Shown here: one piece after another, positions 6,666 to 30,403 of the stretch
Numbering within the stretch: position 1 is the first letter of the stretch
Layout of the letters: the number at the start of each line of letters is the position of its first letter
IMG/VR virus record: IMGVR_UViG_3300007512_000010
Location: 62,001-118,970 of that record
Strand: one strand, 5' to 3'
DNA length: 56,970 bases
DNA from: an uncultured virus (IMG/VR IMGVR_UViG_3300007512_000010)
Lineage: Duplodnaviria > Heunggongvirae > Uroviricota > Caudoviricetes
Made by a program: the position numbers and the translations under genes
The notes under the pieces: model-generated
Database searches by the model: none
What the model saw: only the letters and a program-made list of their open reading frames with translations
What the model was told of the DNA's origin: nothing

Positions 6666-6678
6666 CTTATCCCTAAAA
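6666..6678 (-). promoter_or_regulatory. Putative phage promoter element, copy 1 (TTTTAGGGATAAG)
   Basis: Near-identical 13-mers occur at 26315 and 30391. All three are intergenic at strand switches, upstream of minus-strand genes. Confidence 0.65.
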
Positions 6679-6816
6679 ACACCCCTATTTTTGCACTTTT
6701 TGGGCATTTATTACGTAGTGATAATGGGTATTTTATTACGCTGTAATTATTAAATAATAAAAATTATTATCGGAATGGTCTTCTTCAAGTATTAGCGCGT
6801 TCCATATAATCTAAAT

Positions 6817-7812
6817 ATGGGAAGACAGGTTATTACTACATTGCTTACAGCGACCGGCCTATTAATACCGAGTCAGATCGGATGTGGATCTGACCACTAC
6901 TTAACCTACGAAAATATAGTCGAGGTGCCCGTGGAGGTGCCCGTCTATATTGAAGAGGAGGTTCCAGGGGGGAATGTATGGGTAGATTCCTTTACCCAGC
7001 CTGGGTCGGTTGACGGCGTAGACATCCTGTGGGTGGTTGACCAGTCTGGATCCATGCAGAATGATGAGCCCAATCTACTCGCGGGTATAGGGGCCATGAT
7101 GAACGCCTTACCACCGTCTGGATGGCGTCTTGCAATAATTCCAGCGGACCCGACTGCTGCCTCTATTGAGAACCAGTTCCCTCTGGTGCCTGGAGACACT
7201 GTTCAGGATGCGACAGACATGCTGAATAATATGGCTAGTGGGCACCTTGAGGCTGGGCTTGACGCTGTGTACCACTATGTAATGTCAAATCCATACTCGC
7301 TCACATGGATGCGAGATGATGCGGCGCTTCTAGTTGTGTTTGTGTCTGACGAAGATGACCAGAGCGTAACTATGGCGACGGCCCAAGACTTCATCTATTG
7401 GTATCAAACGACGTCTATCTCTCCGTTTGCCGCCAGCATCGTGAACCTCGACCCCGCCGAGTCTATGTGCAATAGCTCTGCGATGCATGCGGGTGACAAG
7501 TATATTGACGTGACGAACCATTTCGTTGGCGTTGTTTTGGATATTTGCTCAGAGGATTGGTCACAGGGGTCTGTTGATGCTGGCGTACAAGTAGAGCCTC
7601 ACAGCGAATGGCCTCTTTCGCATACCCCAATAGTGGACACTGTTCGTGTATTTATCGATAGCGCATTGAACTCAGACTGGACGTATGACGCGGTAGAGAA
7701 CAAAGTTTTGTTTACGGTGATACCCCCGAGTAATTCTTTGGTTGAGATTGGGTATGTGATTGATGAGCCGGATACTGGACTGGACGCGGGTGCCGATACT
7801 GGTAGTAGCTAA
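6817..7812 (+). CDS. VWA-domain lipoprotein, myxobacterial/Bdellovibrionota type (CglB-like architecture)
   Basis: Signal peptide ending in a lipobox-like QIG-C; MIDAS DILWVVDQSGSM; later EAGL and RDDAALLVVFVSDEDD; C-terminal beta domain and DTG...DTG tail. Confidence 0.75.
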   Translation: MGRQVITTLLTATGLLIPSQIGCGSDHYLTYENIVEVPVEVPVYIEEEVPGGNVWVDSFTQPGSVDGVDILWVVDQSGSMQNDEPNLLAGIGAMMNALPPSGWRLAIIPADPTAASIENQFPLVPGDTVQDATDMLNNMASGHLEAGLDAVYHYVMSNPYSLTWMRDDAALLVVFVSDEDDQSVTMATAQDFIYWYQTTSISPFAASIVNLDPAESMCNSSAMHAGDKYIDVTNHFVGVVLDICSEDWSQGSVDAGVQVEPHSEWPLSHTPIVDTVRVFIDSALNSDWTYDAVENKVLFTVIPPSNSLVEIGYVIDEPDTGLDAGADTGSS

Positions 7813-7851
7813 AAAAGAAGGGGGGACCACCGTGATGGTGATCCCCCCTTC
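7806..7851 (-). terminator. Intrinsic terminator ending the long replication operon
   Basis: The minus strand reads GAAGGGGGGATCACCA-TCAC-GGTGGTCCCCCCTTC-TTTTTTAGCTA. Confidence 0.85.
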
Positions 7852-7882
7852 AACCTAAGCCCTGATCAGGTAGGGCCTAGAA

Positions 7883-8674
7883 CTACTTCTTTAGTTGTGA
7901 CAAGTCCTTAATAAGGTCATCATCGTCTTCAATGATCGCCGTATTAAGGATGTATACCAAAGCGTCATGCAAATCAGCGTACATCGCCGCTTGCTCAGCA
8001 CGCATCGCCTGAACCTCCCCACGGAGGCTATCAATCCCCGTCAGGAAGGAATTAAGGTCGGTACCCACACTAAGGGTGACCTCAGGCGTAGTGGTTGGAA
8101 TTTCTTCCTTCACCACCTCAACAGCTTCAGCAGCAGTCTTCTTTACTCGGAAGCCGCCCTTCTTTTTCTTGGCGGTGGTTTCCTGCTTCTTGGTAGCCGT
8201 CTTAGTAGCAGCTTTGGCGTCTGTAGTGGTCTTGCGTGGCCTACCGCGCTTTCGCTTAGCAGGGGCAGCTTCGACAGTTTCTTCAGTAGCAGCAGTTTCT
8301 ACTACCGGGTTTTTGCGGGGACGTCCACGCTTCCTCTTCTTAGGAGGTTCAACAGTGACAGCAGTGCCTTCTTCAGCTTCCACTGCCTCTTCCGTGGCCC
8401 CGCCAGTAGGGAAGGTGGGAGCCTTGGAGTTACCAAGAATGAATTGCTGCAACTGCTGTAGGTACGCTACGACATTTGGTCGGAACTGTTCCGCGCCAAT
8501 GGTCTCTAGGTCCAGAGACGCAAAGTCTTCAGCACGCTCTTGAATCCAAGAGATCGTTTCGCCCTCTTTCTTGGTGTACGCTTCAAGGGGTTCCATCCCC
8601 ATTCCCACGATTACGATTTTTCTAATTTCCGCTCGGTCGAGCGGGGTCAACATTTTCTTTGTTACTTTACCCAT
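7883..8674 (-). CDS. AT-hook DNA-binding protein (HMGA/histone H1-like)
   Basis: Two canonical AT-hooks (KRKRGRPRK x2), a Lys/Ala/Thr-rich tract and a C-terminal coiled coil. Start revised to ATG 8674 (GGAGG RBS). Confidence 0.75.
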   Translation of the reverse strand: MGKVTKKMLTPLDRAEIRKIVIVGMGMEPLEAYTKKEGETISWIQERAEDFASLDLETIGAEQFRPNVVAYLQQLQQFILGNSKAPTFPTGGATEEAVEAEEGTAVTVEPPKKRKRGRPRKNPVVETAATEETVEAAPAKRKRGRPRKTTTDAKAATKTATKKQETTAKKKKGGFRVKKTAAEAVEVVKEEIPTTTPEVTLSVGTDLNSFLTGIDSLRGEVQAMRAEQAAMYADLHDALVYILNTAIIEDDDDLIKDLSQLKK

Positions 8675-8951
8675 TTTCTTCCTCCAGGAGTTGTTTATAG
8701 CAGAATAATACAACCCCATCATGATGCTCGTAGCAGTTACCATTACATGGGAGGGAAAGCCTGCTACGGTTGTTTTCAATAAAAGCTATAAGACTATTTC
8801 TCATTTGATTGATAGGCGTTTCTGGTATTTCCTCTAGGTTGAATTGCAGAAAACTGTGTAGGTCTTCTAGCTTTGTTGATGGAGACACACGGACTCCTGT
8901 TTGTTCTAGGACTATGTGCCTTAGTTCCTCCTTACCTGTTTTAGGATTCAT
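8667..8951 (-). CDS. Hypothetical protein with a C-terminal Cys/His cluster
   Basis: Overlaps both neighbours in operon fashion; contains LPCNGNCYEHHDGVVLFC. Confidence 0.6.
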   Translation of the reverse strand: MNPKTGKEELRHIVLEQTGVRVSPSTKLEDLHSFLQFNLEEIPETPINQMRNSLIAFIENNRSRLSLPCNGNCYEHHDGVVLFCYKQLLEEENG

Positions 8952-9375
8952 CGCTAAGCTCTTCTATTTTTATTTTGATGCCCACGAAGTCATGGGCGGG
9001 TCCGTCTAATTTCTGAATAAACTCCTCCGTGAAACAAGAATCGTCGATACCTAAACAGTCGGCCAGTACGTCCTCTAACACCTTTACTAAGTTTGATACG
9101 TCCCGCCGCTTGAATCGGGTCTTGGCCTTTGTTGGCCACCCCTTGTTGAACAAGGCTGGTAGGTAGTAGTAAATACTTAGTCGATGGGGCTTGTCTCCGT
9201 TTAGAGGGCTCCCGTCAAAGGACAGTTGTTGGGCTATCTCCATAGACGCTTTCGCTTTAAACTGTTTCATCTTGCTAGACGGCCTAGGCCCACGAGCAGT
9301 ATAGATATACATATTGTTAACTGACGGTGGTAGCAACGTCAACTCTGCAGTGAACACCGTCTTATTTTTATTCAC
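8941..9375 (-). CDS. rusA: RusA-family Holliday junction resolvase
   Basis: LPPSVNNMY, RRDVSNLVKVLEDVL and GIDDS motifs. Probable GTG start at 9375. Confidence 0.8.
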   Translation of the reverse strand: MNKNKTVFTAELTLLPPSVNNMYIYTARGPRPSSKMKQFKAKASMEIAQQLSFDGSPLNGDKPHRLSIYYYLPALFNKGWPTKAKTRFKRRDVSNLVKVLEDVLADCLGIDDSCFTEEFIQKLDGPAHDFVGIKIKIEELSDES

Positions 9376-9913
9376 GAGACACCGGCTTATAACCCCCGGC
9401 AAATTTCTTTGCTGGCTTTGATTTACTCAAGGAAAACTCAGAGTTACGCTCGGGCTCATCTTGTGTTCTAAACCATAGCTCTCTTCCGATTCTGTCCATG
9501 CTTTTGCTTATCTTTCTTAGCCTAGCATCGTGGACATCTACCTTTGCCTTGAAGTAAACGTAGTCCCGCTTTGCCCCTAAACAGGCAGTTACGACGTACG
9601 CCTTTCGGAGGTCTGCGTTGGTTAACTTTTTATCTTTGGCAGATGCAAGAGTTGCCGTCGCGGTTACCGCCTCAAGTCTCGCTTTACTGACGGACATGTA
9701 GCTACTGGCTTTAGCAACTTGATCAGAAAGATACTCAAAGAACGCCAAGAAATCATCGTAGAGTTCTTTGAGGTCTTCGTTCGGTAAGTCCTTCAACCCA
9801 GCAGGTAGTCTAGGTTCTTCACTGGGTGGCTCCCGATCAGGAGCAAAACCCGTGGCACGCAGATCTTTTTCTAGTGTTTCACGTAATTCAAGGAATAAAT
9901 CCTTCTCAGCCAT
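9368..9913 (-). CDS. Helical coiled-coil protein, possibly a UvsY-like recombination mediator
   Basis: All-helical pattern and location among RecA/nuclease genes; GGAGG RBS. The function is inferred. Confidence 0.45.
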   Translation of the reverse strand: MAEKDLFLELRETLEKDLRATGFAPDREPPSEEPRLPAGLKDLPNEDLKELYDDFLAFFEYLSDQVAKASSYMSVSKARLEAVTATATLASAKDKKLTNADLRKAYVVTACLGAKRDYVYFKAKVDVHDARLRKISKSMDRIGRELWFRTQDEPERNSEFSLSKSKPAKKFAGGYKPVSRE

Positions 9914-9922
9914 AGGCACCTC

Positions 9923-10636
9923 CTACTCGCTGAAGGGCTGGCAGACATGCTGAAACTTACATGTTCTACATACCCATTTGTTTGGTTCCTTTGGAGGGGC
10001 TTCTCCAGCCTCTACAAATTCTTCAACTGTCTTTATTATGCTCACAATTTCCTGGAAGATGTCGTTGTCGAACTCAATCTTGAAGAGTCGCATCTGTCCC
10101 GTCGCCCTAGCCACGTAAAGTAGCTGAGTCCTTGGGACGTCCTCGCAGAACATGTAACAGTGTACTTGGTAGATATGCTCTTTCTTGGGCCGAACAAGTG
10201 ATTTAAACACACTCTCGCCCACTGTTTTGATCTCAAGTAGCCAGTCCCTATCACGGAATATTCCGTCGCAGTGGCCCACGATGTGGAGGTCTTCGTTACT
10301 GATTGGGATCTCGGCGTTGAATCCGTCGAACTCCTTCTCAAGCTTCTCTTGGATCATGTCGTGAAGCGCGTGCCCCATGTCAAACAGCATACGGAGATCT
10401 GATGGGATTCGGCTTTCGGGCTCTTGCCCTGTCCGGTCGTACCAAAGAGCACGTTTACAGGCCGTTGGCGTAAGAGAGGATGGGTGATACCCACCGGTTC
10501 TTCTAGACCAAGGCTCTAGGTTTGATTCGAAGTCAATACGCTCTATTTCTTTTAATACTGAGAACTCTCCGTCCTCTTTTATCTTCTTTTCGTTTAGGCA
10601 GCGTGCTGGAATCCTAAATCCTTTTTTCTTTGCCAT
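9923..10636 (-). CDS. Cas4-like / PD-(D/E)xK exonuclease with Fe-S cysteines
   Basis: HPSSL..ACKRALWY, GHALH, GHCDG, LLEIKT, QVHCYM, C-terminal CRTCKFQHVC. Confidence 0.85.
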   Translation of the reverse strand: MAKKKGFRIPARCLNEKKIKEDGEFSVLKEIERIDFESNLEPWSRRTGGYHPSSLTPTACKRALWYDRTGQEPESRIPSDLRMLFDMGHALHDMIQEKLEKEFDGFNAEIPISNEDLHIVGHCDGIFRDRDWLLEIKTVGESVFKSLVRPKKEHIYQVHCYMFCEDVPRTQLLYVARATGQMRLFKIEFDNDIFQEIVSIIKTVEEFVEAGEAPPKEPNKWVCRTCKFQHVCQPFSE

Positions 10637-10637
10637 T

Positions 10638-11405
10638 TCATATACCTCTTTTCGCAAAGGTGAGGAAATTCTCGTAGCTCATCAGTAGATACTCATCCGA
10701 CTCAACGGTAAATCGCACGCCTACGTCATTGAAAACGTCTGCGGCCATCTCTAGAGAAATAGTTAATATCTTTGAAGATTTCTTTTTGCTTGGGATATCC
10801 CTAGTAGAAGAAAGCTCTTCTAGGAAATCTTCTCCTAGATCCTGAAATGGGACTATGGCTACCTCACCTTTCCTCGCAAACTCTATTATGTACGCAGGTA
10901 TTTTACCTTCTGAATATGCTTGAAATTTCAAGTGCTTTAGGTCTTTTAAGCTTAGGGCGTATTTCCCCGTTGTTGTTGTCTTCGCTTCCACCAGAAGCTC
11001 TGGTGTCACCACATCCCGTCTGAACCCCCAAACTGACCCGGAGCCTGCTTGAGTTTTTCCTTCAAGTTCTTTCGCGATGCGCTTCTCTTGTTTTTTACTA
11101 GCATCGCGGTTTGTGGTCACAGCTAATGCCTCCTTTATTACGATGTCATATGTTGTGTCGTTGTAAATCTGTTCCGCGCCCTTGTCCCAGTCTACGCGCC
11201 CTAGAATCATTCGGCATAGCTCTAGGTGACGCTCATCTATATTCGGGAGGACCGCAAGACCGCTCTTTATATGCGTGATGGAATACTCTGTGCCCCCCTT
11301 TGCCTTCTTGGGCGGCTTGTGAAAGTACAGCCCAGGAAGGAAGGGGAACCCATCTACATAGTGCGGTTGTGCTTTTGGCCCTATCCGAATACAGAGTCTT
11401 GCCAT
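10638..11405 (-). CDS. PD-(D/E)xK nuclease, phage Holliday-junction-resolvase-like, with an extra N-terminal domain
   Basis: QEKRIAKELEGKTQAGSGS...DVVT..LLVEAKTT; N-terminal YSITHIKSG domain. Confidence 0.7.
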   Translation of the reverse strand: MARLCIRIGPKAQPHYVDGFPFLPGLYFHKPPKKAKGGTEYSITHIKSGLAVLPNIDERHLELCRMILGRVDWDKGAEQIYNDTTYDIVIKEALAVTTNRDASKKQEKRIAKELEGKTQAGSGSVWGFRRDVVTPELLVEAKTTTTGKYALSLKDLKHLKFQAYSEGKIPAYIIEFARKGEVAIVPFQDLGEDFLEELSSTRDIPSKKKSSKILTISLEMAADVFNDVGVRFTVESDEYLLMSYENFLTFAKRGI

Positions 11406-11406
11406 G

Positions 11407-11703
11407 CTAGTTACCGGTATTTAGCTGTCTCACACACGAGGTGTAAATAGCGTGGTCTAGCTCATTACCTGCCGCACTAGCCGAGAGTGTTCCAGAGCGA
11501 GCGTAAACTCGCCAGAGATCGCCATCGGCTTGTTGTAGGTCGGCGTATTTTTCGCCCATACAGGCGTGTATTTTCGCTAACTTCGCATCGTTTGGTTGGA
11601 TCCAGAACAGGTACCAACCGGTAGAGACGACGAGGAATGAGATTAACACTATGAAAATAGCTGGTTCAGGTAAGTACTTCATCATCAGAAGGCTCCTCTT
11701 CAT
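11407..11703 (-). CDS. Small membrane protein
   Basis: TM segment AIFIVLISFLVVSTGWYLFWI followed by a soluble domain with two Cys. Confidence 0.6.
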   Translation of the reverse strand: MKRSLLMMKYLPEPAIFIVLISFLVVSTGWYLFWIQPNDAKLAKIHACMGEKYADLQQADGDLWRVYARSGTLSASAAGNELDHAIYTSCVRQLNTGN

Positions 11704-12748
11704 TGGGTGTTTTACCCAGCACTGCGGCTCGGACTTCAGCGGCTAGTTCTGGGGACGATCTCAACATTGAGACTACCCCATCCAGGCCACCTTTGATTTT
11801 ATCCTCGTAATCGAGGATATAGTAAACAGGACCGCTATTCCTAACCACACCGTGTGCCTTTGCTGCACGCGCTAGGTCTTGAACTAAATCTACGCCTTGG
11901 TTGAAGATGAAGCTATAGCTCCCCTCAGCACCCTCGCTAATCCCGTGCTTGCCTTTTGAGATTTTCCACTTGATCTCTTTTCCGATTTTTGTCGTTCCCT
12001 TCTTTAGGGTCTGACCCGGCTTCAAGTGAATATCTACAGCTTTTGCGTGCTTGAGGGCGTATCCCCCAGGCTGGGTGTAAGGAACGTACTTCGCGCTGTG
12101 CGCGTTCATGTTTGCCCGAACCGGGTTAATCATGACTACACAAGTCTGGTTGGGCTTGCCGTCCTCGCCAGGAACGCGCATGGCAGAGTAGAACTTCTGA
12201 CAGAAGGAACTAAGTAAAGAAGCCCACGTAGCGATTTTTGCGTCTTCGCCCAGGCCTTTAACTAGATTGTGTCGCGTTTCTCCGGAGCCGAGTTCGTTGA
12301 TGATCAACAAGTGGAACTCCTGGGATTTAACCATCTCTAGCATGGCGTCCAGCATTGTCTCTGCTGGTGCATCGGAGTCGGTGGTAGCGAGATCGACAAA
12401 GAGTAGGTTTCCGCAATCTAGATCAATACCAGCCAGTTCCATGAACCCTGGGTCCGGTTTGTATCCGAAGCTCATCCAGGCAATGTTAGCTGCGTCTCCG
12501 TGTGTCCGCTGTACCTCAGCAATCACTCGGTTCGAAAGGTAGTCTTTACCTACGCCGTCTGGCCCGAAAAGTTGGATCATTGAGCCACCGGGCAACCCGC
12601 CTTTTAACGCGATATCAAGCGATAATATTCCGGTAGGGAGCCTCGTATCAAACGGGGTCTCTACCTCTGTAATGGGGGTAACTGTCGCGGCTCCACCGAG
12701 ACGCTTTTGTACCGATTTAATGAGGTGGCTTAGATCTTTTTTGGCCAT
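11666..12748 (-). CDS. recA: RecA-family recombinase (divergent)
   Basis: LPTGILSLDIALKGGLPGGSMIQLFGPDGVGK, INPVRAN, PGGYALKHA, F.FNQGVD. Confidence 0.9.
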   Translation of the reverse strand: MAKKDLSHLIKSVQKRLGGAATVTPITEVETPFDTRLPTGILSLDIALKGGLPGGSMIQLFGPDGVGKDYLSNRVIAEVQRTHGDAANIAWMSFGYKPDPGFMELAGIDLDCGNLLFVDLATTDSDAPAETMLDAMLEMVKSQEFHLLIINELGSGETRHNLVKGLGEDAKIATWASLLSSFCQKFYSAMRVPGEDGKPNQTCVVMINPVRANMNAHSAKYVPYTQPGGYALKHAKAVDIHLKPGQTLKKGTTKIGKEIKWKISKGKHGISEGAEGSYSFIFNQGVDLVQDLARAAKAHGVVRNSGPVYYILDYEDKIKGGLDGVVSMLRSSPELAAEVRAAVLGKTPNEEEPSDDEVLT

Positions 12749-12993
12749 CAGGTCTCCTCTAGTTCTTTTCTCATTTTTTCAAATTCTTCGATAAGTTCTG
12801 GGTCCATACCGTCATCCCCAAGCTGGTCTCTGTACAGACTGACCATGTCGTTAAGCAGCTTCATCTTGAAGTCCTTAATCATTTGGGGGGCTCTCCCGGA
12901 AGCTATTTTTTCCATCGCAGCCTCTTCAGAATCGCAGAGCTTCATCTTCAGAAGTGTTGCGACAAGTTGGGAGGCGTCGCTGTATTTTTCCAT
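12748..12993 (-). CDS. Hypothetical protein
   Basis: Translationally coupled in the operon. Confidence 0.55.
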   Translation of the reverse strand: MEKYSDASQLVATLLKMKLCDSEEAAMEKIASGRAPQMIKDFKMKLLNDMVSLYRDQLGDDGMDPELIEEFEKMRKELEET

Positions 12994-12997
12994 AATA

Positions 12998-13546
12998 TTA
13001 CTCTTCTAGGTTTAGGCGTTTCTTCACGGAACGCATCTCAGACTTGGTTACTGGTCCCATAGACATTCGGTAGCCAGAGCCATCTTCTAGCTCAACGTAG
13101 CCTTGGTCTATGTCGAGGAAGGCCCCAACGACGGCATCACCCTCGGTGACAGTGGTATTCACTGATCCGATGATTTCTAGTAAGGCTACTTGCCGCTTCT
13201 TGATCATGTCATTTATGTCCAATTCTTCCTCCCGGTGAACACTGTGATGGGTTGTGAAGCCGTTCGGATAACGGCGCTTCAGCTTGTCTATATTTATATC
13301 ACCTATGTCCGACAGGTCGAGTTTTAATATGCTCGAAATCCCGGCGATGTACCAAAGGAGATCACCAAGCTCTTTAGCCAAGTAATCTTTATCAAGGGCG
13401 TGCTTATGAAAGACCGCTTTCTTAACGTGGTCAATCAACTCCCCACCCTCCCCAGCAAGACCTAAACAAAAGTTCGTTAGAAGGCTATCTATTTCTTCTA
13501 CTGGGATGGTTCTCGCTGCTAACCTTTGGTACTCGCTCAGGTTCAT
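12998..13546 (-). CDS. mazG: MazG-like nucleotide pyrophosphohydrolase with a C-terminal extension
   Basis: EYQRLAART, LGLAGEGGELIDHVKK, KELGDLLWY, NIDKLKRRYPNGF. Confidence 0.9.
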   Translation of the reverse strand: MNLSEYQRLAARTIPVEEIDSLLTNFCLGLAGEGGELIDHVKKAVFHKHALDKDYLAKELGDLLWYIAGISSILKLDLSDIGDINIDKLKRRYPNGFTTHHSVHREEELDINDMIKKRQVALLEIIGSVNTTVTEGDAVVGAFLDIDQGYVELEDGSGYRMSMGPVTKSEMRSVKKRLNLEE

Positions 13547-13549
13547 CTA

Positions 13550-14035
13550 TCAGTACTCCGGTGATGTAAACTTACTTCCATCTGGGATCTTTGTTACGGC
13601 CCAGTTGGTCAGATCGATCCATTCAATATTTTCACTATCTACGATGGCGCAGAAGCCCACAAGGTATCGGAGCTTCTCATATCCGATTTCTTGTAAGATT
13701 ACAGACCAGTCCTCGTGGACGTGCTCCTGTAGTTCCGTTGTGAAGTCGATTTCTTCACAGTCTTCAAAGTCGTCCCCCTCGCCCCCGTCACCATCATTTT
13801 TTACAATTATGCGCTCACAGGGCCAACTGGTGTACCCCCCGAAGGCTACGAGTTCAAACGGCTCTTCTTCCGGGTCACTCGCGTACTTTTGGTGGACCTC
13901 TGCGGTATCTACCGCCTTTGTCCAAAGCTCTAAACCATCATCGCTAGAGATGAGGGTATCGAACCAATCTTGAAACTTCTCTTTGTCCTTCACCCTAAAA
14001 TAGGATGATCTAACTGCGGGCAGGTAATTAGCCAT
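13550..14035 (-). CDS. Acidic hypothetical phage protein
   Basis: MANY...RSSYFRVKD...IGYEKLRYLVG; GGAG RBS; operon context. Confidence 0.6.
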   Translation of the reverse strand: MANYLPAVRSSYFRVKDKEKFQDWFDTLISSDDGLELWTKAVDTAEVHQKYASDPEEEPFELVAFGGYTSWPCERIIVKNDGDGGEGDDFEDCEEIDFTTELQEHVHEDWSVILQEIGYEKLRYLVGFCAIVDSENIEWIDLTNWAVTKIPDGSKFTSPEY

Positions 14036-14297
14036 AGCCAAACTCCGTGATAAATTCTTCTTTTTCTTTCTTACTCATACGCTTGAAGCCATGCTCAGAG
14101 ACTAAGGCTTCCGCCTTGTCCCGGCACCTATGGGAGTAGGCTAAGTAGACGGGTCTTCTAGACCTCGTATACTTAGCCCCTCTCCTGGTGCTGTTATGTT
14201 CGTGCACGCGTCGTTTCAGGTCCGTAGTAATCCCTGTGTAGAGAGAACCGTCTGAACACCTAACAACGTATACAAACCATAGCTTCTTTTTTGGCAC
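14028..14297 (-). CDS. GIY-YIG nuclease (UPF0213/YhbQ-like)
   Basis: WFVYVVRCSDGSLYTGITTDLKRRVHEHN..GAKYTRSRRPV..E..FKRMSKKEK. Confidence 0.9.
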   Translation of the reverse strand: MPKKKLWFVYVVRCSDGSLYTGITTDLKRRVHEHNSTRRGAKYTRSRRPVYLAYSHRCRDKAEALVSEHGFKRMSKKEKEEFITEFGYG

Positions 14298-14299
14298 AA

Positions 14300-14725
14300 C
14301 TAGCCCTCAAACGGGGAAACAAACTTACGGACAAAGCCTACGTAAAGACCTAAGTCATTATCTTGGAATTCTGCATCTTCCATTGATTCGCCTAATCTTC
14401 CGTAGGCGAAGGCGATATCATTATCTGTGCAGTATTCATCGATCTGGTTTATCACAAGATCCCAGGGATCGTAGCACTTCCAGTAGTCATGTTCGAATGC
14501 AGCCCTGGCAAGTCCATTGTCTGCGTTCACAATGTCTAGGTCAATTTGGGACATTTGGATGTTCTCGTAGGTTTCCCCAACGGTGAACCCATAGCTACTT
14601 GGGATGGGTGCTTTTTTCTCTAGTTCTTTGCACATCTCTTCTTGGGTCTTCAGCCATTTGAAGAAGGCATCCATCTTATCCTTAGGTGCCTCAACAAGTA
14701 TTTGGTAACTACTCCTGTACCCCAT
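14300..14725 (-). CDS. Hypothetical phage protein
   Basis: Start revised to ATG 14725 (MGYRS, AAGGAGG RBS); ends ...AFAYGRLGESMEDAE. Confidence 0.6.
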   Translation of the reverse strand: MGYRSSYQILVEAPKDKMDAFFKWLKTQEEMCKELEKKAPIPSSYGFTVGETYENIQMSQIDLDIVNADNGLARAAFEHDYWKCYDPWDLVINQIDEYCTDNDIAFAYGRLGESMEDAEFQDNDLGLYVGFVRKFVSPFEG

Positions 14726-14993
14726 GGCTCTCACCTCCTTCATTTTCAGGGCTATTGGGACAGCCGAACATGTGGCCCATGTCTTTGGGCGCATGGCAGC
14801 AGTTGTAATGTGTGGGCTCAAGGTCAGGCACATCTTCTTCGTTGCAGTCTGGGTGATCGCAACACCTAGCGTGACAATGAGATAGTGGGTTTTCTACTGG
14901 GCTATGGTGGTCTTCCCACTCATCCGCTGTGTACTTTTGTTCGCAGAAGTAGCAGGTAGCTACATCCAACCACTCGGAATACTCAGTCGTCAT
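14709..14993 (-). CDS. Small Cys/His-rich hypothetical protein
   Basis: CYFC, HCHARCCDHPDC, HYNCCH, HMFGC; coupled to its neighbours. Confidence 0.5.
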   Translation of the reverse strand: MTTEYSEWLDVATCYFCEQKYTADEWEDHHSPVENPLSHCHARCCDHPDCNEEDVPDLEPTHYNCCHAPKDMGHMFGCPNSPENEGGESHGVQE

Positions 14994-15231
14994 TGAAGTA
15001 ATCCATGTCTTCGTCAGCGTCATCTGTGTCTTCTGTACCGGCCTCATTAAAGAAGGCGTAGCAAGCAGCTAGATGGGCTTCATCATGGTCGTCTTTTATT
15101 AGGGCTTGGCTGTACATGTCGCACAGCGCACCCTCATCGGTCATCATTACTCGGACCAAGATGTTGTTCACCGTAATCCAGACCGTATCGTCTACTTGGA
15201 ATAGTTCTAATTCGTGGTCATGATTCGTCAT
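14983..15231 (-). CDS. Small acidic hypothetical protein
   Basis: Operon-packed ORF. Confidence 0.55.
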   Translation of the reverse strand: MTNHDHELELFQVDDTVWITVNNILVRVMMTDEGALCDMYSQALIKDDHDEAHLAACYAFFNEAGTEDTDDADEDMDYFNDD

Positions 15232-15406
15232 CTAACCTTTCTCCTGTTTGTATTTCGTAGTGCCGTACTTCCCCCGTAGAGAGACACTCCACGGAGGCTA
15301 CGGTTTCTTCGGTCTCAATACGATCTAGGGTTACTACGAGCGCCCTTTCGAAGCTGTCGGCTTTAAGCTCATCCTCGATTATTACTCTATAATGTTTTTG
15401 TTCCAT
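15218..15406 (-). CDS. Small hypothetical protein
   Basis: Operon-packed ORF; probable start MEQKHY. Confidence 0.5.
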   Translation of the reverse strand: MEQKHYRVIIEDELKADSFERALVVTLDRIETEETVASVECLSTGEVRHYEIQTGERLDDES

Positions 15407-18698: not shown

Positions 18699-18721
18699 AG
18701 CTGACCTCCGTTAGCTAGGTT

Positions 18722-18759: not shown

Positions 18760-18780
18760 TACCAAATGACGTTGAATTTA

Positions 18781-20938: not shown

Positions 20939-20940
20939 CC

Positions 20941-22365: not shown

Positions 22366-22667
22366 TAGAACTCCCTGTCTACTAAGCCTTTGATGGTTGT
22401 ACGTACTGCCTCTTCACTGGTGTCATCCTCACTACCGCCAACGCCCTTCAGAAATTCTGACTCAATCGCCTCAACAAGCTGTTGTGCTTTTGTCAGAACT
22501 TCTTCAGAGAACTCATTAGACGTCGCCATACCTGCGGCTTTTCCCTCCGTTAAGTACGCGATACTGGCCTCCACCGTAGGACGCACATTGGTCCCATGGT
22601 GGTGCCAGGACACCGTAACCTCAAAACACTTGAGGCCGTTTATTCGGTTGCTGTTAAATTCAATCAT
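22365..22667 (-). CDS. Hypothetical protein
   Basis: Probable start MIEFN; coupled to the helicase start. Confidence 0.55.
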   Translation of the reverse strand: MIEFNSNRINGLKCFEVTVSWHHHGTNVRPTVEASIAYLTEGKAAGMATSNEFSEEVLTKAQQLVEAIESEFLKGVGGSEDDTSEEAVRTTIKGLVDREF

Positions 22668-23094
22668 TGAATCGTTCCTCATACAACCGTGTTCTAATGT
22701 CTGTAACATGGCCCATCATGGCTTTACCGAGATGCTCACGAGAAGCCTCCCAAGCCAAGTCATATGCCATGTTGTGCGCAGCACGGATAGTGTCGGCGTT
22801 CTGGTCACACTGAAGCGTGACACTTGAGAAAACCTCAACGCTGTATGGGATCTTATCCCAGGTCCCTTCTGCGTAATGTACTGAGTCTGATACTTTTGTG
22901 GATACGCTGGCTGTAACAGCAGCGTATCCATCGTCTCGTTCAAATACTAAGTCTCGAACGGGGATTCGATCTTCAAGTCTTTCGGCCATTTCGTACTCCT
23001 TATCTTTTTTAGATGGTCCATCTTTCCACGTTTTTCGTATAAAGACGGAGAGGGTGCCGTAAGCACCCTCCCCGTCGTGCATGCGAGCACGCAT
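22660..23094 (-). CDS. Hypothetical protein
   Basis: Operon-packed ORF. Confidence 0.6.
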   Translation of the reverse strand: MRARMHDGEGAYGTLSVFIRKTWKDGPSKKDKEYEMAERLEDRIPVRDLVFERDDGYAAVTASVSTKVSDSVHYAEGTWDKIPYSVEVFSSVTLQCDQNADTIRAAHNMAYDLAWEASREHLGKAMMGHVTDIRTRLYEERFND

Positions 23095-23516
23095 TATGCG
23101 ACCTTAATAACGACTTCCTTCGGGGCCGAGACCCGTGGGGTGCCGTGCTTTTTGGTTCTAGCACCGTTAATCAAGTCGGCGTCGAAGGTACCTGCAACAA
23201 TACCTTGCTCGATTACACGGTTATCAACGGATTTAACGACGCCAGGGGTCTTCAGATATGAAGACGGAAGTTCATGGGGCTCGTAGGCCCAGGTTTCTGG
23301 TGCCCGTGAGCGGTCCATAATCCCGATAGACATGGGGTCCGTTCCGGGACGACTTCTAAATGCGTCAATCGCATTACTGCGAGAAACGTTGTACTCCTGT
23401 ACAAGTTGATGGAACTGGTCAAACACTTGCTCGTGGTCAGCCATAAATTCCAACAATTGATCTCTTTTGTTTGCGAAAGCTTTCTCAAGCTTCCGTACTT
23501 CTCGTTCACTAGCCAT
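23094..23516 (-). CDS. Hypothetical protein (N-terminal coiled coil)
   Basis: AGGAGG RBS; operon-packed. Confidence 0.6.
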   Translation of the reverse strand: MASEREVRKLEKAFANKRDQLLEFMADHEQVFDQFHQLVQEYNVSRSNAIDAFRSRPGTDPMSIGIMDRSRAPETWAYEPHELPSSYLKTPGVVKSVDNRVIEQGIVAGTFDADLINGARTKKHGTPRVSAPKEVVIKVA

Positions 23517-24177
23517 GTTGATTCCTCCTTAAGGATTTGATTCTGTGGGCTATATCTAAACCCACGCGTATGTTATCTAGTGTCTTATTCCATATACCCC
23601 CGACTTTTTGTGACGGGTTTCTATACAGTTGGTTGACAGATGGGAGTGCCATAGTAGGCACTGGGTATTTAATTAGGTCTCCCTGAATGAAGGCCTCTAC
23701 TACCCGCCCTTGTACTTCTTGAACCTTTACGTTTGGAACAAGCGCGTTCACTGAAGCGGAGCCGAAGGCAAATATAAGGCAAGGCTCAATTAGATGAATC
23801 TCTTGGTGGAGCCGTGTATTACATGCTTCTACTTCTGACTTTTTCGGTGCCGGAAGCATCTCTATTCGACGTGGTTGTGGCCTAAGCCCCCCTGTCGGGC
23901 AAGATACTACTGGGGTAACCCAAATAGCCGCTGGACTCATTCCGGCTCTCTTGAACAGAGTGTTCAGGAACCGGCCTTCACCGCTTGAGAGAATATCGCC
24001 TGTCACAGCGGCCCTTGGGCCGACGCGATCAATTACAGCTACAAGGTGGGTACTAGGACTGCCTTTTCCACAAAGAAGAACTTTGCGGTTTCTGTGGAGA
24101 CCACATGAGGTGCAAGAGCGTTGTTCGAACAGTAAGTTCTCAATCTTCTCTTCCGATGTCACTGTGTCTAAATCCAT
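23509..24177 (-). CDS. Uracil-DNA glycosylase family 4-like protein with degenerate catalytic motifs
   Basis: CTSCGLH..R..V..G.G, G..G..L..L...G, V.C.., P...E..AC..RL..EI..I.P..I..FG..A. The GE(A/G)PG and HP(S/A) motifs are replaced by DRVG and LPS. Confidence 0.75.
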   Translation of the reverse strand: MDLDTVTSEEKIENLLFEQRSCTSCGLHRNRKVLLCGKGSPSTHLVAVIDRVGPRAAVTGDILSSGEGRFLNTLFKRAGMSPAAIWVTPVVSCPTGGLRPQPRRIEMLPAPKKSEVEACNTRLHQEIHLIEPCLIFAFGSASVNALVPNVKVQEVQGRVVEAFIQGDLIKYPVPTMALPSVNQLYRNPSQKVGGIWNKTLDNIRVGLDIAHRIKSLRRNQHG

Positions 24178-25543
24178 TGGCTCTAATACTCTTCCTTAGG
24201 TGTTTACACATTGCCCTGGCTGGGCCAAAGTTATAGTCGTCTAAAACGATAACCACTGGGGGTTTCTTGTCTTTGTGGCGGCGTTCAATTCTCCCCTTCC
24301 CTTGTTGAAACGCCCCCCAAGCCTTAAATGGACTAGCAAAAATAAGCGTGTCCAGTGCTGCGACATCCAGCCCCTCACGGGCAACCCCAAAAGTGGCGAA
24401 AGTCACGTTGTTATCTTCAATTATTTTCGTTCGGAGGTCTCCGGGGGTATCCCCTGAAACCGCCCCTGCTGTATACCTTTCCTTACACGGGCTGTCCAGA
24501 AACTTCTCAACCATGATGGCTGGATGATCCTTACTGTGCGTGAGGACAAGGACTTTTCTTCCACTGTCCAACGCGGACTCGACCGTCTTTAAAAGGGCGA
24601 CGTTGCGGGCGTCGTGCTCCGCAAAGTATTTGTACATCTTCCCCGCCGAGAACTCTCCGGTGATGTCTTTAATCACCGAGGTGTCTTTTGGCATTGGGGT
24701 GGACACCTTCTTGAAGTATATCTCCGCCTCTATGTCACCAGCTAAATCACTATAGAAAATGCGCCCTACATGAGAGTAGTACACATCTTCTAAGCCATCT
24801 TCCCGGCAAGGTGTAGCGGTTAAGCCGAACCTATTACCGAAAAATAATGGGGCTGTCTGGCTAAAGGTTGTGGCCGAGAGGTGGTGTACTTCATCAAACA
24901 CAACAGTTCCAAAGCGGGTTCGGATATCCAAGGGGATAGAGTCTGCTCGTTTTGCGAGGGTGTGAATCATGGCGATGACAAGAGGTTTATCCCACTCAGC
25001 CTTTGGGCCTTGCACGATACCGATGTCATCTTCTGAGATGTCCAAAAACTCTAATGCACGCTCTTTCCATTGATCCATAAGGCCACTGTTGTTCACCACA
25101 ACGACGGCGGGATGTCCGCGCTGAGCAATCTTTTTTAGTGCTAGGACGGTTTTGCCTTTTCCGCAGGCTAGGTTCAAGACACCGTGATTTCTTTCAGAGA
25201 AGGCTTCCCAAGCAGCAAGCTGGTCAGCGTCTCTAGGTGTGATCTTGTCACCGAAGTCAAAAGATTCGTAGGAAAGAGAGACTTGTTCCCAAGACTCTAC
25301 CTTCTCTAACCAGACCTCTTTAGTGAAAAAGTGTCTAGCTATTACAACGTAATCCCCTACTTCTGCGGCTAGCGGTACTGAGGTTACATCCCCAGTCCGG
25401 TCGTTTACCACATTGATCGTGGCTGCTCGTATGAAGGCTTGCTTGTTGGTCAACCGCTCAGAGGGAACCCAAACGGAAGCAGAACAACAAACTAGACCTT
25501 CAAGCGACGCACCCTGGTCACTTTCTGGTAGGTAGGGTTTCAA
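24140..25543 (-). CDS. SF2 DExH helicase (ResIII/UvsW/XPB-like)
   Basis: LACGKGKT, FDEVHH, GLTATPCREDG, REGLDV, QGKGRIER; TTG start. Confidence 0.9.
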   Translation of the reverse strand: MKPYLPESDQGASLEGLVCCSASVWVPSERLTNKQAFIRAATINVVNDRTGDVTSVPLAAEVGDYVVIARHFFTKEVWLEKVESWEQVSLSYESFDFGDKITPRDADQLAAWEAFSERNHGVLNLACGKGKTVLALKKIAQRGHPAVVVVNNSGLMDQWKERALEFLDISEDDIGIVQGPKAEWDKPLVIAMIHTLAKRADSIPLDIRTRFGTVVFDEVHHLSATTFSQTAPLFFGNRFGLTATPCREDGLEDVYYSHVGRIFYSDLAGDIEAEIYFKKVSTPMPKDTSVIKDITGEFSAGKMYKYFAEHDARNVALLKTVESALDSGRKVLVLTHSKDHPAIMVEKFLDSPCKERYTAGAVSGDTPGDLRTKIIEDNNVTFATFGVAREGLDVAALDTLIFASPFKAWGAFQQGKGRIERRHKDKKPPVVIVLDDYNFGPARAMCKHLRKSIRANGFRHSDIGRED

Positions 25544-25544
25544 G

Positions 25545-25982
25545 TTACTTCTCCAATATCCGGGTTATTGCCCCCGAGATAAAATGTTCCATACTCTCCG
25601 TTCGTTCTGTTGGGAGGTGCTCAAAGAACAAGTCCACTATTCGGGCGGTCTTGTCTTCTGAGATGGAGTCCTTTTTAATATATTTCCGAAGTTCCGCGTT
25701 AGCGGCGGCACCAAAAGCTCGTTTAGCTGCGGGCTCTCTTTTACTTCGTTCTTCGTATAGAGCCGCTATCAGCCGTTTAGCCTCTTCGTCTTTACTGGGG
25801 TCAAGGTCGAGTGCCTTAAGAATCTTCTCCAAACTCTGGTTTGGCGGTAAAACTTTGCCCGTTTCGTACTGACGGTACGTCTCTCTATTTAATCCACACA
25901 ATTCTGCAAATTTACGAGAGGACAGTCTGCGGCTGGTTCGCATGGTTGACAAAACCGTGCCGAAACGAGATTTTGTTTTCAT
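25545..25982 (-). CDS. XRE-family helix-turn-helix regulator
   Basis: FG..L...R..RRLS...FAELCGL.RETYRQYETGKVLP....LEKILKAL. Confidence 0.85.
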   Translation of the reverse strand: MKTKSRFGTVLSTMRTSRRLSSRKFAELCGLNRETYRQYETGKVLPPNQSLEKILKALDLDPSKDEEAKRLIAALYEERSKREPAAKRAFGAAANAELRKYIKKDSISEDKTARIVDLFFEHLPTERTESMEHFISGAITRILEK

Positions 25983-25993
25983 AGAGTCCTCTG

Positions 25994-26266
25994 CTAGTTG
26001 TCTTGATCGCTATCATGATATATGACAGAATCTTCTTTGTCACAAGCAGATACTTCGTCAAAGTCGATATCTATGATGGTTCCACCGGTTTCAAGCGCAG
26101 TCCCTGTGGTATCTTGAGAGGGTGGTTTGCGGAGACTGCGGGAGATCCTATTGAATAAGTCCATCAAACCAGTTACTAAAATTTCAGGAACTTCTCTGGG
26201 TTCATCTGTTGTTATAGAATCAGTTGGCACTTCTACATTAATGGTATACGGTTTATCATTTGACAT
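25994..26266 (-). CDS. Small acidic hypothetical protein, first gene of the replication operon
   Basis: Start revised to ATG 26266 (GGAGG RBS), downstream of the motif at 26315. Confidence 0.6.
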   Translation of the reverse strand: MSNDKPYTINVEVPTDSITTDEPREVPEILVTGLMDLFNRISRSLRKPPSQDTTGTALETGGTIIDIDFDEVSACDKEDSVIYHDSDQDN

Positions 26267-26314
26267 GATCACTAACCTCCGAGTTAGGGTGTAGGTAAGG
26301 TAGCTAACAAAGTG

Positions 26315-26327
26315 CTTATACCAAAAA
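26315..26327 (-). promoter_or_regulatory. Putative phage promoter element, copy 2 (TTTTTGGTATAAG)
   Basis: Heads the 18-kb minus-strand operon; matches the 13-mers at 6666 and 30391. Confidence 0.65.
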
Positions 26328-26352
26328 GGGCTCAACCATTGTGGAGATAGAA

Positions 26353-27991: not shown

Positions 27992-28000
27992 GGGATTATT

Positions 28001-30004
28001 ATGTCTAGTAATATTGGTCGTTACGTTTCAGGCGGTAGAGCCCGCGCATCCACGGTGGGCAGACCAGAAAAGTTCTACCCGAGTCCCTTTTTTGACGTTG
28101 CACAAAACTATCTACCCAAAACGATCAAAGATACTTTTGACTGGTGCTTGTACTACCAGCTTACTAATCCCCTGGTCAGCAGCATTACGCAGAAGCTCGC
28201 AACTTACGCCATTACCGACCTTATCTATGAGGACGATAACGAAGGCGTCACAGAGCGATACAAAGAGATCTTCGAAAAGCAGTTTTTGCTGCGGCAGTTC
28301 CTCGTAGAAACGAATCTAGATAGGTACACGTACGGCAATGCTTTTGTCTCCGTATCCTTCCCCTTTACAAAGGTTCTTACTTGTAAGGAGTGCAAGGCAG
28401 ACTACGAGGCAAGGAAGATCAAGTACAAGTGGAAGAGCTATCAATTCCACATCACTTGCGACTCGTGCGGGCACGAAGGGATTGCTGGTGTAAAGGATGA
28501 GCCAGTAAAGGCTGGCCTACAGATTCGGCTTATTCGTTGGAATCCGAAGAACATCAAAATCAACTACAACGAAATTACCGGGAAAAGCGAGTATTACTAC
28601 GAGGTTCCTCGCTATATCAAAAACGATATCACCCTCGGTAAACCCTCAATCATCGAAACGGTGCCGCAGGCTTTTATCGAGGCAATGCGGAAGAAGAAGA
28701 GCATCCTTCTCGAAAGCTCTAAACTGTTTCACGCGAAACGTGCATCAATCTCAAGAGCCCCCTCCGATAGTGGCTGGGGTGCTCCACTCATCCTCCCAGT
28801 GCTTAAGGATATTTTCTTTCTACAGGTCTTGAGGAAAGCTCAGGAAGCTGTCGCCATGGAGCACATCGTCCCCATGCGGGTCATGTTTCCACAGGTAACT
28901 ACAGACGGGAACAACCCTTACGCACACATCAATCTTCAGGATTGGCAGGAAGAGGTCTCTAGTCAGATTAAGAAGTGGCGGCAGGACAACAACCATATCC
29001 CGGTGATGCCTGTCCCCGTTGGCTACCAGATGATTGGCGGGCAAGGGCGGTCACTACTCCTCCACCAAGAACTCCGAATTTATAATGATCAAATAATCGC
29101 TGGAATGGGTGTTCCCACTGGGTTCTTTTACGGAGAGCAGCAGTACTCAGGGGCCTCAGTGAATCTTAGGGCGCTAGAGAATGAGTTTTTGGGAAATCGG
29201 CAGGATATGCTTCGTCTCGTTGAGTTTATCCGTGATCGTGTGTGCGCTTTCTTGGATCTTCCTAAAATCAAACTGAAGTTCAAGCCATTCAAGATGGCTG
29301 ACGACATCCAGCGAGCACAGTTTGATATGCAGCTTGCTGGCTCAAACATGATTAGTCGCAGAACCTTCTTGGAGTCCCGAGACTTTAACTTTGAGAGCGA
29401 GCAGGAACTTATCAGCACTGAACTGACGAAGATGAATAAGCAGCAGCGTGAGCAAATGATCGCACAGGCGAGCGCTCAGGGCGAAGCAATGCTCATCAAT
29501 ACTCGGTATCAGGGACAGGCTCAATTCCTACAGGCAGAGTCTCAGCAGGAGTTGCAACAGGCATTCCCGGAAATGGCCCAGCAACAAGCAGCCGCTCAAC
29601 AGGGCGGTGGTGCTCCGCAACAAGGAGGCGCTCCGCCACAGCAAGGCGGCGGTGATCCAGCCGCCGCTCAACAACAGGGGGCACCGCCTCCCGGAATGGA
29701 GCAACAGCAACAACAGCCGCCGCAACAAGAAGGCGGGCCTGTCCAAGGGGTGGAGCAGAGTCCGGTTCAGGCTCAACAAAACGGCGGCATGGTAGATATG
29801 TTTGCACAGGCCAAGCAACTCACCTCAGAGCTAAAAAAGATGAATGAGGTGGACAGGTATCGGGCCATGTCCCAAATCCGTGCAAGCAACCCTGATCTCT
29901 ACATGTTGGTGAATAATGCCCTATCTGGGGCTGGCGTGAAGTCCATGAATCCCCTACCGGAGAAACTACCTTCACGCGCAGACCCAGATAGAGCGCAGGT
30001 TTAA
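28001..30004 (+). CDS. Portal protein with a Zn-ribbon insertion and Gln/Pro-rich C-terminal region
   Basis: YYQLTNPLVSS, YTYGNAFV, IRWNPKNIKI, GWGAPLI, IIAGMGVP..F, SGASVNL motif series typical of large-phage portals; CKEC/CDSC. Confidence 0.75.
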   Translation: MSSNIGRYVSGGRARASTVGRPEKFYPSPFFDVAQNYLPKTIKDTFDWCLYYQLTNPLVSSITQKLATYAITDLIYEDDNEGVTERYKEIFEKQFLLRQFLVETNLDRYTYGNAFVSVSFPFTKVLTCKECKADYEARKIKYKWKSYQFHITCDSCGHEGIAGVKDEPVKAGLQIRLIRWNPKNIKINYNEITGKSEYYYEVPRYIKNDITLGKPSIIETVPQAFIEAMRKKKSILLESSKLFHAKRASISRAPSDSGWGAPLILPVLKDIFFLQVLRKAQEAVAMEHIVPMRVMFPQVTTDGNNPYAHINLQDWQEEVSSQIKKWRQDNNHIPVMPVPVGYQMIGGQGRSLLLHQELRIYNDQIIAGMGVPTGFFYGEQQYSGASVNLRALENEFLGNRQDMLRLVEFIRDRVCAFLDLPKIKLKFKPFKMADDIQRAQFDMQLAGSNMISRRTFLESRDFNFESEQELISTELTKMNKQQREQMIAQASAQGEAMLINTRYQGQAQFLQAESQQELQQAFPEMAQQQAAAQQGGGAPQQGGAPPQQGGGDPAAAQQQGAPPPGMEQQQQQPPQQEGGPVQGVEQSPVQAQQNGGMVDMFAQAKQLTSELKKMNEVDRYRAMSQIRASNPDLYMLVNNALSGAGVKSMNPLPEKLPSRADPDRAQV

Positions 30005-30225
30005 TGGACAAGAATTAGTATTGCCGAGGGGTTATCGCATCTGTCGCAAACGCCCCGTTGATAGTACGGGGAGGCCTTATCAGCTTTAACGACACATGCA
30101 GAGCAAACCCATCTAACGCAACCAGTGTTCTCAATGAAATGAGCACACGCCCCGCAATTCTTGGGTTCGTAGCACCAGATTCCGGCAACGTCACAAGCAA
30201 TAGGTTTGGGGGCGCGAGTAGACAT
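30001..30225 (-). CDS. Small Cys-rich (probable Zn-binding) protein
   Basis: CGAC, CSAC, CDRC and further Cys; lies downstream of motif copy 3. The start is uncertain (30225 or 30279). Confidence 0.5.
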   Translation of the reverse strand: MSTRAPKPIACDVAGIWCYEPKNCGACAHFIENTGCVRWVCSACVVKADKASPYYQRGVCDRCDNPSAILILVH

Positions 30226-30390
30226 CGCTATCCGACGATCATCAGCGATGATTCTACGGCTGACGCGAATAGTTCGCATGTGTTAAGACACCACATAAAG
30301 CACCTCTTTGACTATTGTTCCATGATTGTTAGAAAGATACACGCTGGTATACTCCTCTTATTTGGTTGGGAGCTACATTGCTCCATAGTT

Positions 30391-30403
30391 CTTATACCTA
30401 AAA
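30391..30403 (-). promoter_or_regulatory. Putative phage promoter element, copy 3 (TTTTAGGTATAAG)
   Basis: Matches the copies at 6666 and 26315; sits back-to-back with the RNAP start. Confidence 0.65.

Follow-up and report, generated by a model that had tools for sequence, protein, structure and literature searches.

The window studied here is a stretch of 56,970 nucleotides (nt) of DNA from an uncultured tailed phage (IMG/VR record IMGVR_UViG_3300007512_000010) and forms the final 57 kb of that 118,970-bp phage record, which we call G000. Genes in the initial 62 kb of the record lie almost wholly on the plus strand. Within the window, the plus strand encodes a terminase, a protease, a capsid protein and a fused beta-beta' RNA polymerase (RNAP), and three main units of genes run on the minus strand, each headed by a copy of one short element, CTTATMCCWAAAA (Table 1). 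A preliminary description of the window took this element for a candidate 13-bp promoter. Our verdict is that it is a real feature, that it belongs to a two-part promoter occurring throughout a lineage of phages, that its boundaries need correction, and that a candidate holoenzyme and a cultured test system can be named for it.

Table 1. Features of the window and its record. Positions are those of the window unless prefixed with G000; aa, amino acids; ORF, open reading frame.
Feature	Position	Strand	Remarks
Predicted promoter 1	6659..6695	-	matrix score 20.1 bits at 6659
Predicted promoter 2	26308..26343	-	matrix score 16.4 bits at 26308
Predicted promoter 3	30384..30419	-	matrix score 21.6 bits at 30384
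Unit 1: two small genes (59 and 136 aa)	5950..6598	-	no known family
Terminator-like hairpin and U tract, end of unit 1	5890..5920	-	pattern match
Unit 2: replication/recombination operon, 18 kb	7883..26272	-	
Terminator-like hairpin and U tract, end of unit 2	7810..7851	-	pattern match
Unit 3: 22-codon ORF (30296-30228) and cysteine-rich gene	30001..30296	-	
Fused beta-beta' RNAP, 2077 aa, proposed core	30433..36666	+	NADFDGD at about residue 1404
Candidate sigma factor, 299 aa	G000:C1:21468-22367	+	40 kb outside the window, amid plus-strand genes
Possible host-type RNAP promoter, TTGTTA-16-TATACT, TG before -10	30326..30353	+	weak, at chance level for the scan

The operon of unit 2 encodes an XRE helix-turn-helix protein, helicases, UDG, DnaB, a primase, PolA, MazG, RecA, a Cas4-like nuclease and RusA, together with small genes. 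In unit 3, the conserved part of the cysteine-rich gene begins at Met 30225 (74 aa), not at 30279, and its product is 35-72% identical to that of relatives. The 22-codon ORF in front of it resembles a small ORF of the relatives, as judged by eye only.

Exact matches to CTTATMCCWAAAA occur three times in the window (6666, 26315 and 30391), in one orientation and always in a divergent intergenic gap, and never in 100 shuffled versions. The three same-orientation copies heading minus-strand units are as first described. The count alone says little, since the pattern was derived from the three copies themselves and its frequency with two mismatches is at background (7 vs 4.8 +/- 2.0).

A motif was therefore learned from relatives only. 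The first 589 residues of the polymerase, used as the query, returned 77 loci; two loci of the same virus were excluded and the remaining 75 upstream regions were reduced to 52 non-redundant ones. An unseeded search of both strands of these regions yielded CATAGTTCTTATACC (16.7 bits, log-likelihood 328 vs 59 when shuffled). With the resulting 15-column matrix, 51 of the 52 regions have a site of at least 10.9 bits in the orientation of the window sites at the RNAP junction, whereas the other orientation never exceeds 9.6 bits, and the junction motif can be traced down to 35% polymerase identity. When the matrix was run on the record, ranks 1 to 3 were the three window sites (Table 1), and ranks 4 and 5 (15.5 and 14.1 bits) fell inside genes. 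The site at 30384 is the orthologue of a training region; only those at 6659 and 26308 are independent. Above 15 bits, a third-order Markov null predicts 1.1 sites per genome where 4 are observed, so that the strength of the result rests on the location of the top sites, not on their number.

The location is consistent across relatives. Ten of their records were analysed with a simple gene caller of our own (four whole records, and 20-60 kb around known hits in six others). Among 118 sites of at least 14 bits, 97 are intergenic, in genomes where intergenic DNA makes up 10-18%. The next gene faces the direction of the site in 87 of these 97, and the median distance from site to next start is 40 nt. 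Furthermore, 55 of the 97 come after a co-directional gene and can have no divergent target, which makes their direction unambiguous. Site orientation tracks the gene, with back-to-back pairs in G005 and G008, and the motif is not a palindrome. Pattern counts agree: 85 matches in five records vs 13 for reversed-pattern controls, and 86 vs 21 for a looser pattern in five more distant records. G002 and G004 have a site at the same junction as promoter 2. G001 is a longer record of the same virus (at least 99.9% identical over 99 kb); its extra 56 kb contains eight more sites of at least 13 bits, six on the strand of ours and the other two on the opposite strand, ahead of genes on that strand. 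PHROGs had no family for the six tested genes directly behind these extra sites.

The preliminary description saw no full copy elsewhere, including ahead of a small antisense ORF at 44496-44729 (minus strand). This holds: the whole 118,970-bp record has no fourth exact copy, and no matrix site above 9 bits lies ahead of that ORF. The ORF is conserved (46-55% in G002 and G004), so this fourth minus-strand unit would use another signal or read-through. Separately, three records share a strong copy of the motif within one and the same coding region (G001:C1:37708, G002:C1:106712 and G004:C1:46864), which is a candidate internal promoter.

Position counts over 93 non-redundant intergenic sites define the element, read on the minus strand, as (G/C)AA(A/T)-N15/16-GG(T/G/C)ATAAG-N5-T|G. 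The 13-bp boundaries do not survive. Their TTTTW half is not conserved (TTTT precedes GG in 13 of the 93 sites, 6 of these 13 from the same virus), and the element runs the other way instead, to N5-TG. Nor does the claim of a single element with no shared -35: an upstream box, with its AA, stands at the same offset in all three window sites (GCAAAA, CACAAT and GCTAAC). Across the set, [CG]AA[AT] at two adjacent offsets (one 9-nt window) is found in 66 of 93 sites vs 1-12 in five control windows, and A occupies two positions not covered by the matrix in 85 and 79 of the 93, respectively. Setting DATAAG at -12 to -7 puts the conserved T/G at -1/+1 and tGCAAw at -35 to -30. The 17-18 bp that this placement leaves between the boxes are the spacing of a sigma promoter, and fall in the 16-18 bp range of sigma-70-family architecture. 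Position -11 is A in all 93 sites; position -7, a column of the picking matrix, is G in 82 and T in 2. The element varies by lineage, being GTTATAAG in Vibrio phage D69 and GG[GAC]ATAAG in G006, G007 and G010.

In promoter 1, the parts are a -35 box TGCAAAA (6695-6689), a -10 region GGGATAAG (6673-6666) and a predicted +1 G at 6659, followed by a 60-nt leader up to a GTG at 6598. Promoter 2, which heads the replication operon and overlaps the 5' end of a divergent plus-strand gene, has CACAAT (26343-26338), GGTATAAG (26322-26315) and a predicted +1 G at 26308. Promoter 3 stands back to back with the RNAP start and consists of GCTAAC (30419-30414), GGTATAAG (30398-30391) and a predicted +1 G at 30384. 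The predicted start bases follow from spacing, which puts them on the conserved G; hairpins lend this weak support. In the 40 nt that begin at the predicted base, a stem opens at +1 to +3 in 53 of the 93 sites; the control windows have 22-34. At promoters 1 and 3, the hairpin begins on the predicted G itself (5 bp at promoter 3). Since the opening of the stems ranges from about 4 nt ahead of the predicted base to 3 nt past it, the hairpins bound the start but do not fix it.

The phage has genes that could supply a reader for such a promoter. The fused RNAP is our proposed core; no alpha subunit was found in five records. The product of G000:C1:21468-22367 is a sigma-70-family factor, with regions 2, 3 and 4 recognizable in sequence and fold. 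Its best family model is SigB/F/G (E 1.3e-5); it passes the Pfam cut-off for region 3, matches a PHROG sigma family and bears the helix-turn-helix of region 4. A profile of ten homologues matched 64 solved sequences, with E values down to 1e-13, and all 60 listed are sigma factors. A single-sequence fold of the protein was unusable (mean predicted confidence, pLDDT, 52). A model with pLDDT 75.9 matches sigma chains over its full length (top E about 1e-6, with TM scores of only 0.2-0.35), and all fold matches listed are sigma chains or sigma-RNAP models. A Pfam search for region 2 in five records detected a different sigma in two of them but missed this one in all five.

Sigma and polymerase travel together. 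The sigma gene is present in all ten relatives' records (cut by the contig end in one). A scan with sigma returned 62 loci, of which we kept those on 15 contigs above 165 kb that were missing from the results of the polymerase scan; each of the 15 encodes the polymerase, at one locus per record. The two genes thus co-occur in each of the 25 records tested. Copies of the strict motif number 4-22 in 10 of the 15 contigs (controls 0-1), and a looser pattern reveals one-strand variants in some of the other five, such as 15 copies of GGTATAAG-N5-TR on one strand of G020. A model of sigma in complex with residues 600-1330 of the RNAP scored 0.73 vs 0.01 for the best control, above a mark reached by 116 of 157 solved pairs and 2 of 215 mismatched pairs. 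Runs agree in at least 97% of contacts, with partner pLDDT at least 80, and they seat region 2 of sigma at the clamp helices and its region 4 at the flap tip (the part names are ours). Sigma and core being a textbook pair, this shows likeness to solved holoenzymes, not binding. A second sigma occurs in G005, G006, G008, G015, Arash and D69 and was not seen in G004 or G012-G014. An attempt to tie sigma residues to promoter variants was dropped: in D69, a basic residue of region 2.4 is missing and GT replaces GG, but eleven related sequences are too few for a test, and we claim no such link.

The closest phages in GenBank are Vibrio phages D181, D148 and D69 and Salmonella phage Arash (OQ632216), whose RNAP is about 30% and whose sigma about 29% identical to those described here. 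As in G000, the portal gene of all four adjoins the RNAP. Arash has 31 exact copies of GGTATAAG vs 4.8 expected, 30 of them on the non-structural strand. Within 70 nt of an annotated start lie 25 of these 30, one start being that of a transfer RNA (tRNA), and one copy is inside a gene. The sole plus-strand copy precedes gp9-gp10, gp10 being the orthologue of our sigma. Positions that played no part in picking the sites are constrained as well: all 31 copies have a purine at +1 and 30 have a pyrimidine at -1, so that the pyrimidine/purine step 6-7 nt past the -10 box that is typical of sigma-70-family architecture is present in Arash. Arash thus shares the word GGTATAAG-N5-YR with our phage and has it before non-structural genes and tRNAs; in the 81 kb of D69 analysed, 7 of 8 minus-strand sites read GTTATAAG. 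Arash and the Vibrio phages differ in that their RNAP is split in two genes, a second sigma is present and the upstream box is weaker. In Arash virions, the RNAP beta subunit gp206 is the top protein with 3516 spectra, against 1333 for the capsid protein, and gp10 has 467 (PMC10585845). The main text of that paper makes no use of the word 'promoter' (PMC10585845).

Two side observations concern Arash. At 127778, 101767, 139405 and 171079 (minus strand), a promoter copy is followed by a ribosome site and an ATG where no gene is annotated; these loci are probably missed small genes. A T[CG]TAAAA-like word upstream of several other Arash genes may represent a second class.

Most likely, then, the element is a promoter that stands before the non-particle genes in a large group of bacterial viruses and is read by their own single-chain RNAP with their own sigma. 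We propose that it is the -10 half of a two-part, phage-specific promoter laid out as (t)GCAAW at about -35 to -30, 17-18 bp, GG and DATAAG at -12 to -7, T at -1 and G at +1. The phage would encode a full holoenzyme, consisting of the one-chain beta-beta' polymerase and the SigB/F/G-like sigma, in which sigma region 4 would read the upstream box and regions 2-3 the GGNATAAG box. Polymerase and sigma would be made alongside the structural genes, packed in the head and injected. The injected holoenzyme could then switch on replication and host-takeover genes at once, without the host polymerase, and the G at -7 may keep host sigma-70 away. We regard it as nearly certain that the promoter faces the minus-strand genes, as highly probable that it is read by the phage sigma, and as probable that this sigma acts on the phage core. 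Delivery of the holoenzyme in the virion is favoured with modest confidence, and the same modest confidence applies to the full statement that this is the early promoter of a packaged polymerase-sigma holoenzyme. The earlier idea of an early/middle-type promoter facing minus-strand units, in a phage with its own fused RNAP, is supported. As to the reader, the fused RNAP is retained as the likely core; the sigma factor was absent from that proposal.

A number of points count against this reading. The sigma falls under the curated cut-offs of all NCBIfam models; for the SigB/SigF/SigG subfamily (TIGR02980) it scores 25 bits where 234 are required. The strict motif has only 0-2 copies in 5 of the 15 sigma-bearing contigs, and G026 lacks even the looser pattern above control. 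Our gene caller is crude, six of the ten relatives' records were read only in parts picked around hits already known, and G001, one of the ten, comes from the same virus. Identity between Arash and this phage is only about 30%, the upstream box of Arash is weak (at most 0.47 bits), and its virion list numbers 116 proteins, including metabolic enzymes, with carry-over allowed for by the authors (PMC10585845).

The alternative that fares best keeps the holoenzyme and the promoter but has the enzyme made after infection: the host polymerase would transcribe the RNAP and sigma genes first, and the GGNATAAG promoter would define a middle class. Of 38 distant relatives (2 of 40 were dropped for lack of a start), 18 have a TAnnnT 7-13 nt ahead of the RNAP start, vs 0-7 in nine control windows. 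These boxes suggest near-leaderless host-type promoters, so that the polymerase gene looks host-transcribed, early or late; they are as compatible with late synthesis as with early synthesis by the host enzyme. In G000, a TG-TATACT lies 80 nt ahead of the RNAP and a TATAAT immediately before the sigma ORF, and the carry-over allowed for in Arash virions (PMC10585845) points the same way. On the other hand, the RNAP and sigma genes lie on the strand of the structural genes and among them, the RNAP beta subunit outscores the major capsid protein in Arash virions (PMC10585845), and the motif heads small-gene clusters typical of the earliest class (G005 243-7192, G001 3306-5008). We consider synthesis after infection rather unlikely.

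Three observations on these host-type signals may be added. The TAnnnT word precedes the RNAP start in L014, L015, L016, L021, L051, L052, L061, L066, L073-L075 and others. Some relatives have TTG on the reverse of the early promoter's -35 region. A search for a late motif at 209 gene starts without the element (four records) found only terminator-like runs, and TAnnnT is not enriched at those starts (74 vs 104 on the other strand).

Alternatively, the phage sigma might read the promoter on the host core, with the phage polymerase serving another gene class or working elsewhere. Phage sigmas that redirect the host core are common (PMC7598289, PMC13282480), the alpha subunit was not found in the five records, and our complex model covers the phage core only. 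Yet sigma and polymerase occur together in every record tested, the polymerase retains the clamp helices and flap tip that are paired with sigma regions 2 and 4 in the model, and the promoter word is kept across phages of different hosts. We judge this explanation unlikely, and favour the phage's own holoenzyme.

Very improbable is the form in which the element was first described, a single AT-rich box read by the fused polymerase alone and free of sigma, as in phiKZ and AR9. Jumbo-phage early promoters are indeed motifs of about 10 nt centred near -10 (PMC7598289), and the upstream box is weak in Arash, but here a second box lies at the -35 position with 17-18 bp spacing and a sigma with a region-4 helix-turn-helix is conserved. 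A promoter of a host sigma factor, SigB/F-like or flagellar, is more improbable still. GGGTAT does resemble the SigB -10 box GGG(A/T)A(A/T) (PMC8346170); however, SigB has a GTTTAA -35 box and a 12-14 bp spacer (PMC8346170) where the phage has GCAAW and 15-16. The same word is used by a Salmonella phage, and Salmonella and Vibrio phage words differ at one base. Salmonella is not known to have a SigB/F-type sigma. Equally improbable is a function other than a minus-strand promoter, such as a plus-strand late promoter, an operator or a polar DNA signal: all window sites lie in divergent gaps, two of the three only 18-33 nt from a plus-strand start, and Arash has a one-strand bias, but we rejected the late-promoter reading because the sites stand anywhere between 22 and 145 nt from the RNAP start and 55 of the 97 intergenic sites have no divergent gene behind them, and the non-palindromic motif turns with the gene in the back-to-back pairs.

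Other features of the locus deserve mention. In both terminators, AGC follows the final U run, and 'ttttagc/ttcttagc' recurs upstream of co-directional promoters in relatives. A lone vWA-like gene (6817-7812, plus strand) separates two minus-strand units and has no homologue in the relatives' loci that were fetched; a TATAAT lies 7 nt upstream of its ATG. Relatives whose RNAP is 59-77% identical have, between portal and RNAP, a cysteine-rich 74-aa gene and a tiny ORF that ends in an 'ELAxAVxxAL'-like word. The tiny ORF is shorter in our genome, where an upstream ribosome site with a GTG opens a different frame; a family search with the tiny ORF and the cysteine-rich gene gave no match. An SNF2-type helicase (42589-44376, plus strand) is encoded amid the structural genes, and the beta' gene of Arash adjoins the gene of a helicase detected in virions (PMC10585845); this helicase could serve the polymerase.

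Surrounding the RNAP and sigma genes, on the same strand, are those for portal, terminase, capsid and tail proteins. Plus-strand proteins of the head region are rich in a hydrophobic/Glu-K-x-A word (EKTA, EKVA, VKQA), with 5 occurrences in 217 aa, 6 in 331 and 8 in 656, vs 8 in about 3900 aa of minus-strand proteins. The word was noted at 52460-53113, 26353-27348, 38713-40683 and 53280-54367 of the window and at G000:C1:21468-21520. Judged by their sequence, these words are candidate prohead-protease sites. The sigma has a leader with FLKFA, and Arash gp10 lacks this leader.

Looking beyond this phage, we hold with slightly less confidence than for virion delivery that tailed phages of a widespread lineage, 170-200 kb in size, inject a full miniature bacterial-type holoenzyme without alpha, made up of beta-beta' and a true sigma-70-family factor with its own two-part promoter; that sigma and promoter drift together as orthogonal sets; and that late genes return to host-type promoters. 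If true, this would be the simplest bacterial-type holoenzyme with sigma-directed initiation; it would offer a model of how sigma functions in the absence of alpha and a candidate system for orthogonal expression. In a cultured phage, Arash, both proteins, the sites and the predicted start base can now be pointed to and are directly testable. In many uncultured genomes, the motif also separates early genes from structural ones. The literature search, whose scope excluded subscription journals as well as supplements that could bear on Arash and mReC, turned up no description of this promoter.

Compared with sigma-70 promoters (TTGACA-17-TATAAT), the phage promoter has the same -35/-10/start spacing and an A at -11, but it differs in having GG, not TG, before the hexamer, and G at -7 and GCAA at -35 in place of the T and TTG of the housekeeping type. 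Among group 3 sigmas, the SigB, SigF and sigma-28 promoters were compared. The likeness to this group consists of a G-rich start of the -10 box, a short -35 box and a sigma of about 230 aa with regions 2, 3 and 4, whereas this sigma scores far under the family cut-offs and has a phage core as its proposed partner. Sigma-70 binds a flipped T at -7 (PMC7598289). SigB of Bacillus subtilis uses GTTTAA-N12-14-GGG(A/T)A(A/T) (PMC8346170); the phage promoter has another -35 word (GCAAW) and spacer (15-16 nt to GG), a fixed AAG end and a T/G start (PMC8346170, PMC5829568).

The mReC (PMC7481178) are likewise uncultured tailed phages with a bacterial-type beta/beta' polymerase and NADFDGD, and our RNAP shows the homology to beta and beta' with NADxDGD, as one chain. 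mReC capsids belong to PF07068 and terminases to PF03237 (PMC7481178). Here, the terminase belongs to PF05876, and the capsid has no Pfam match at E 0.01 and matches NF042927 (HK97 capsid_Caudo_2) instead. The words 'promoter' and 'sigma' do not occur in the text of the mReC paper (PMC7481178). Because the capsid and terminase families differ, we dropped the idea of filing the phage under mReC.

An injected early polymerase also recalls coliphage N4, in which it transcribes the early genes and host-type signals serve the late genes. The N4 virion enzyme differs in being a single-subunit, T7-type polymerase with hairpin promoters and no sigma. With phiKZ and AR9, the phage shares an alpha-less multisubunit-type polymerase proposed to be injected and a motif near -10 before early operons (PMC7598289, PMC13282480). 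However, the phiKZ/AR9 enzymes have five or more chains, no sequence-recognizable sigma and one AT-rich box, whereas we find one chain, a recognizable sigma-70-family factor, two boxes and one polymerase in place of the two split ones of jumbo phages. Virion-carried polymerase is published for one relative only, Arash (PMC10585845), and of the two reviews PMC7598289 and PMC13282480, the 2020 one states that no jumbo-phage virion RNAP had been purified by then. Jumbo phages are described with virion polymerases, single-box early promoters and no recognizable sigma, and phages with clear sigmas as using the host core (PMC7598289, PMC13282480, PMC7824862); the present lineage appears to join a core, a sigma and a promoter of its own.

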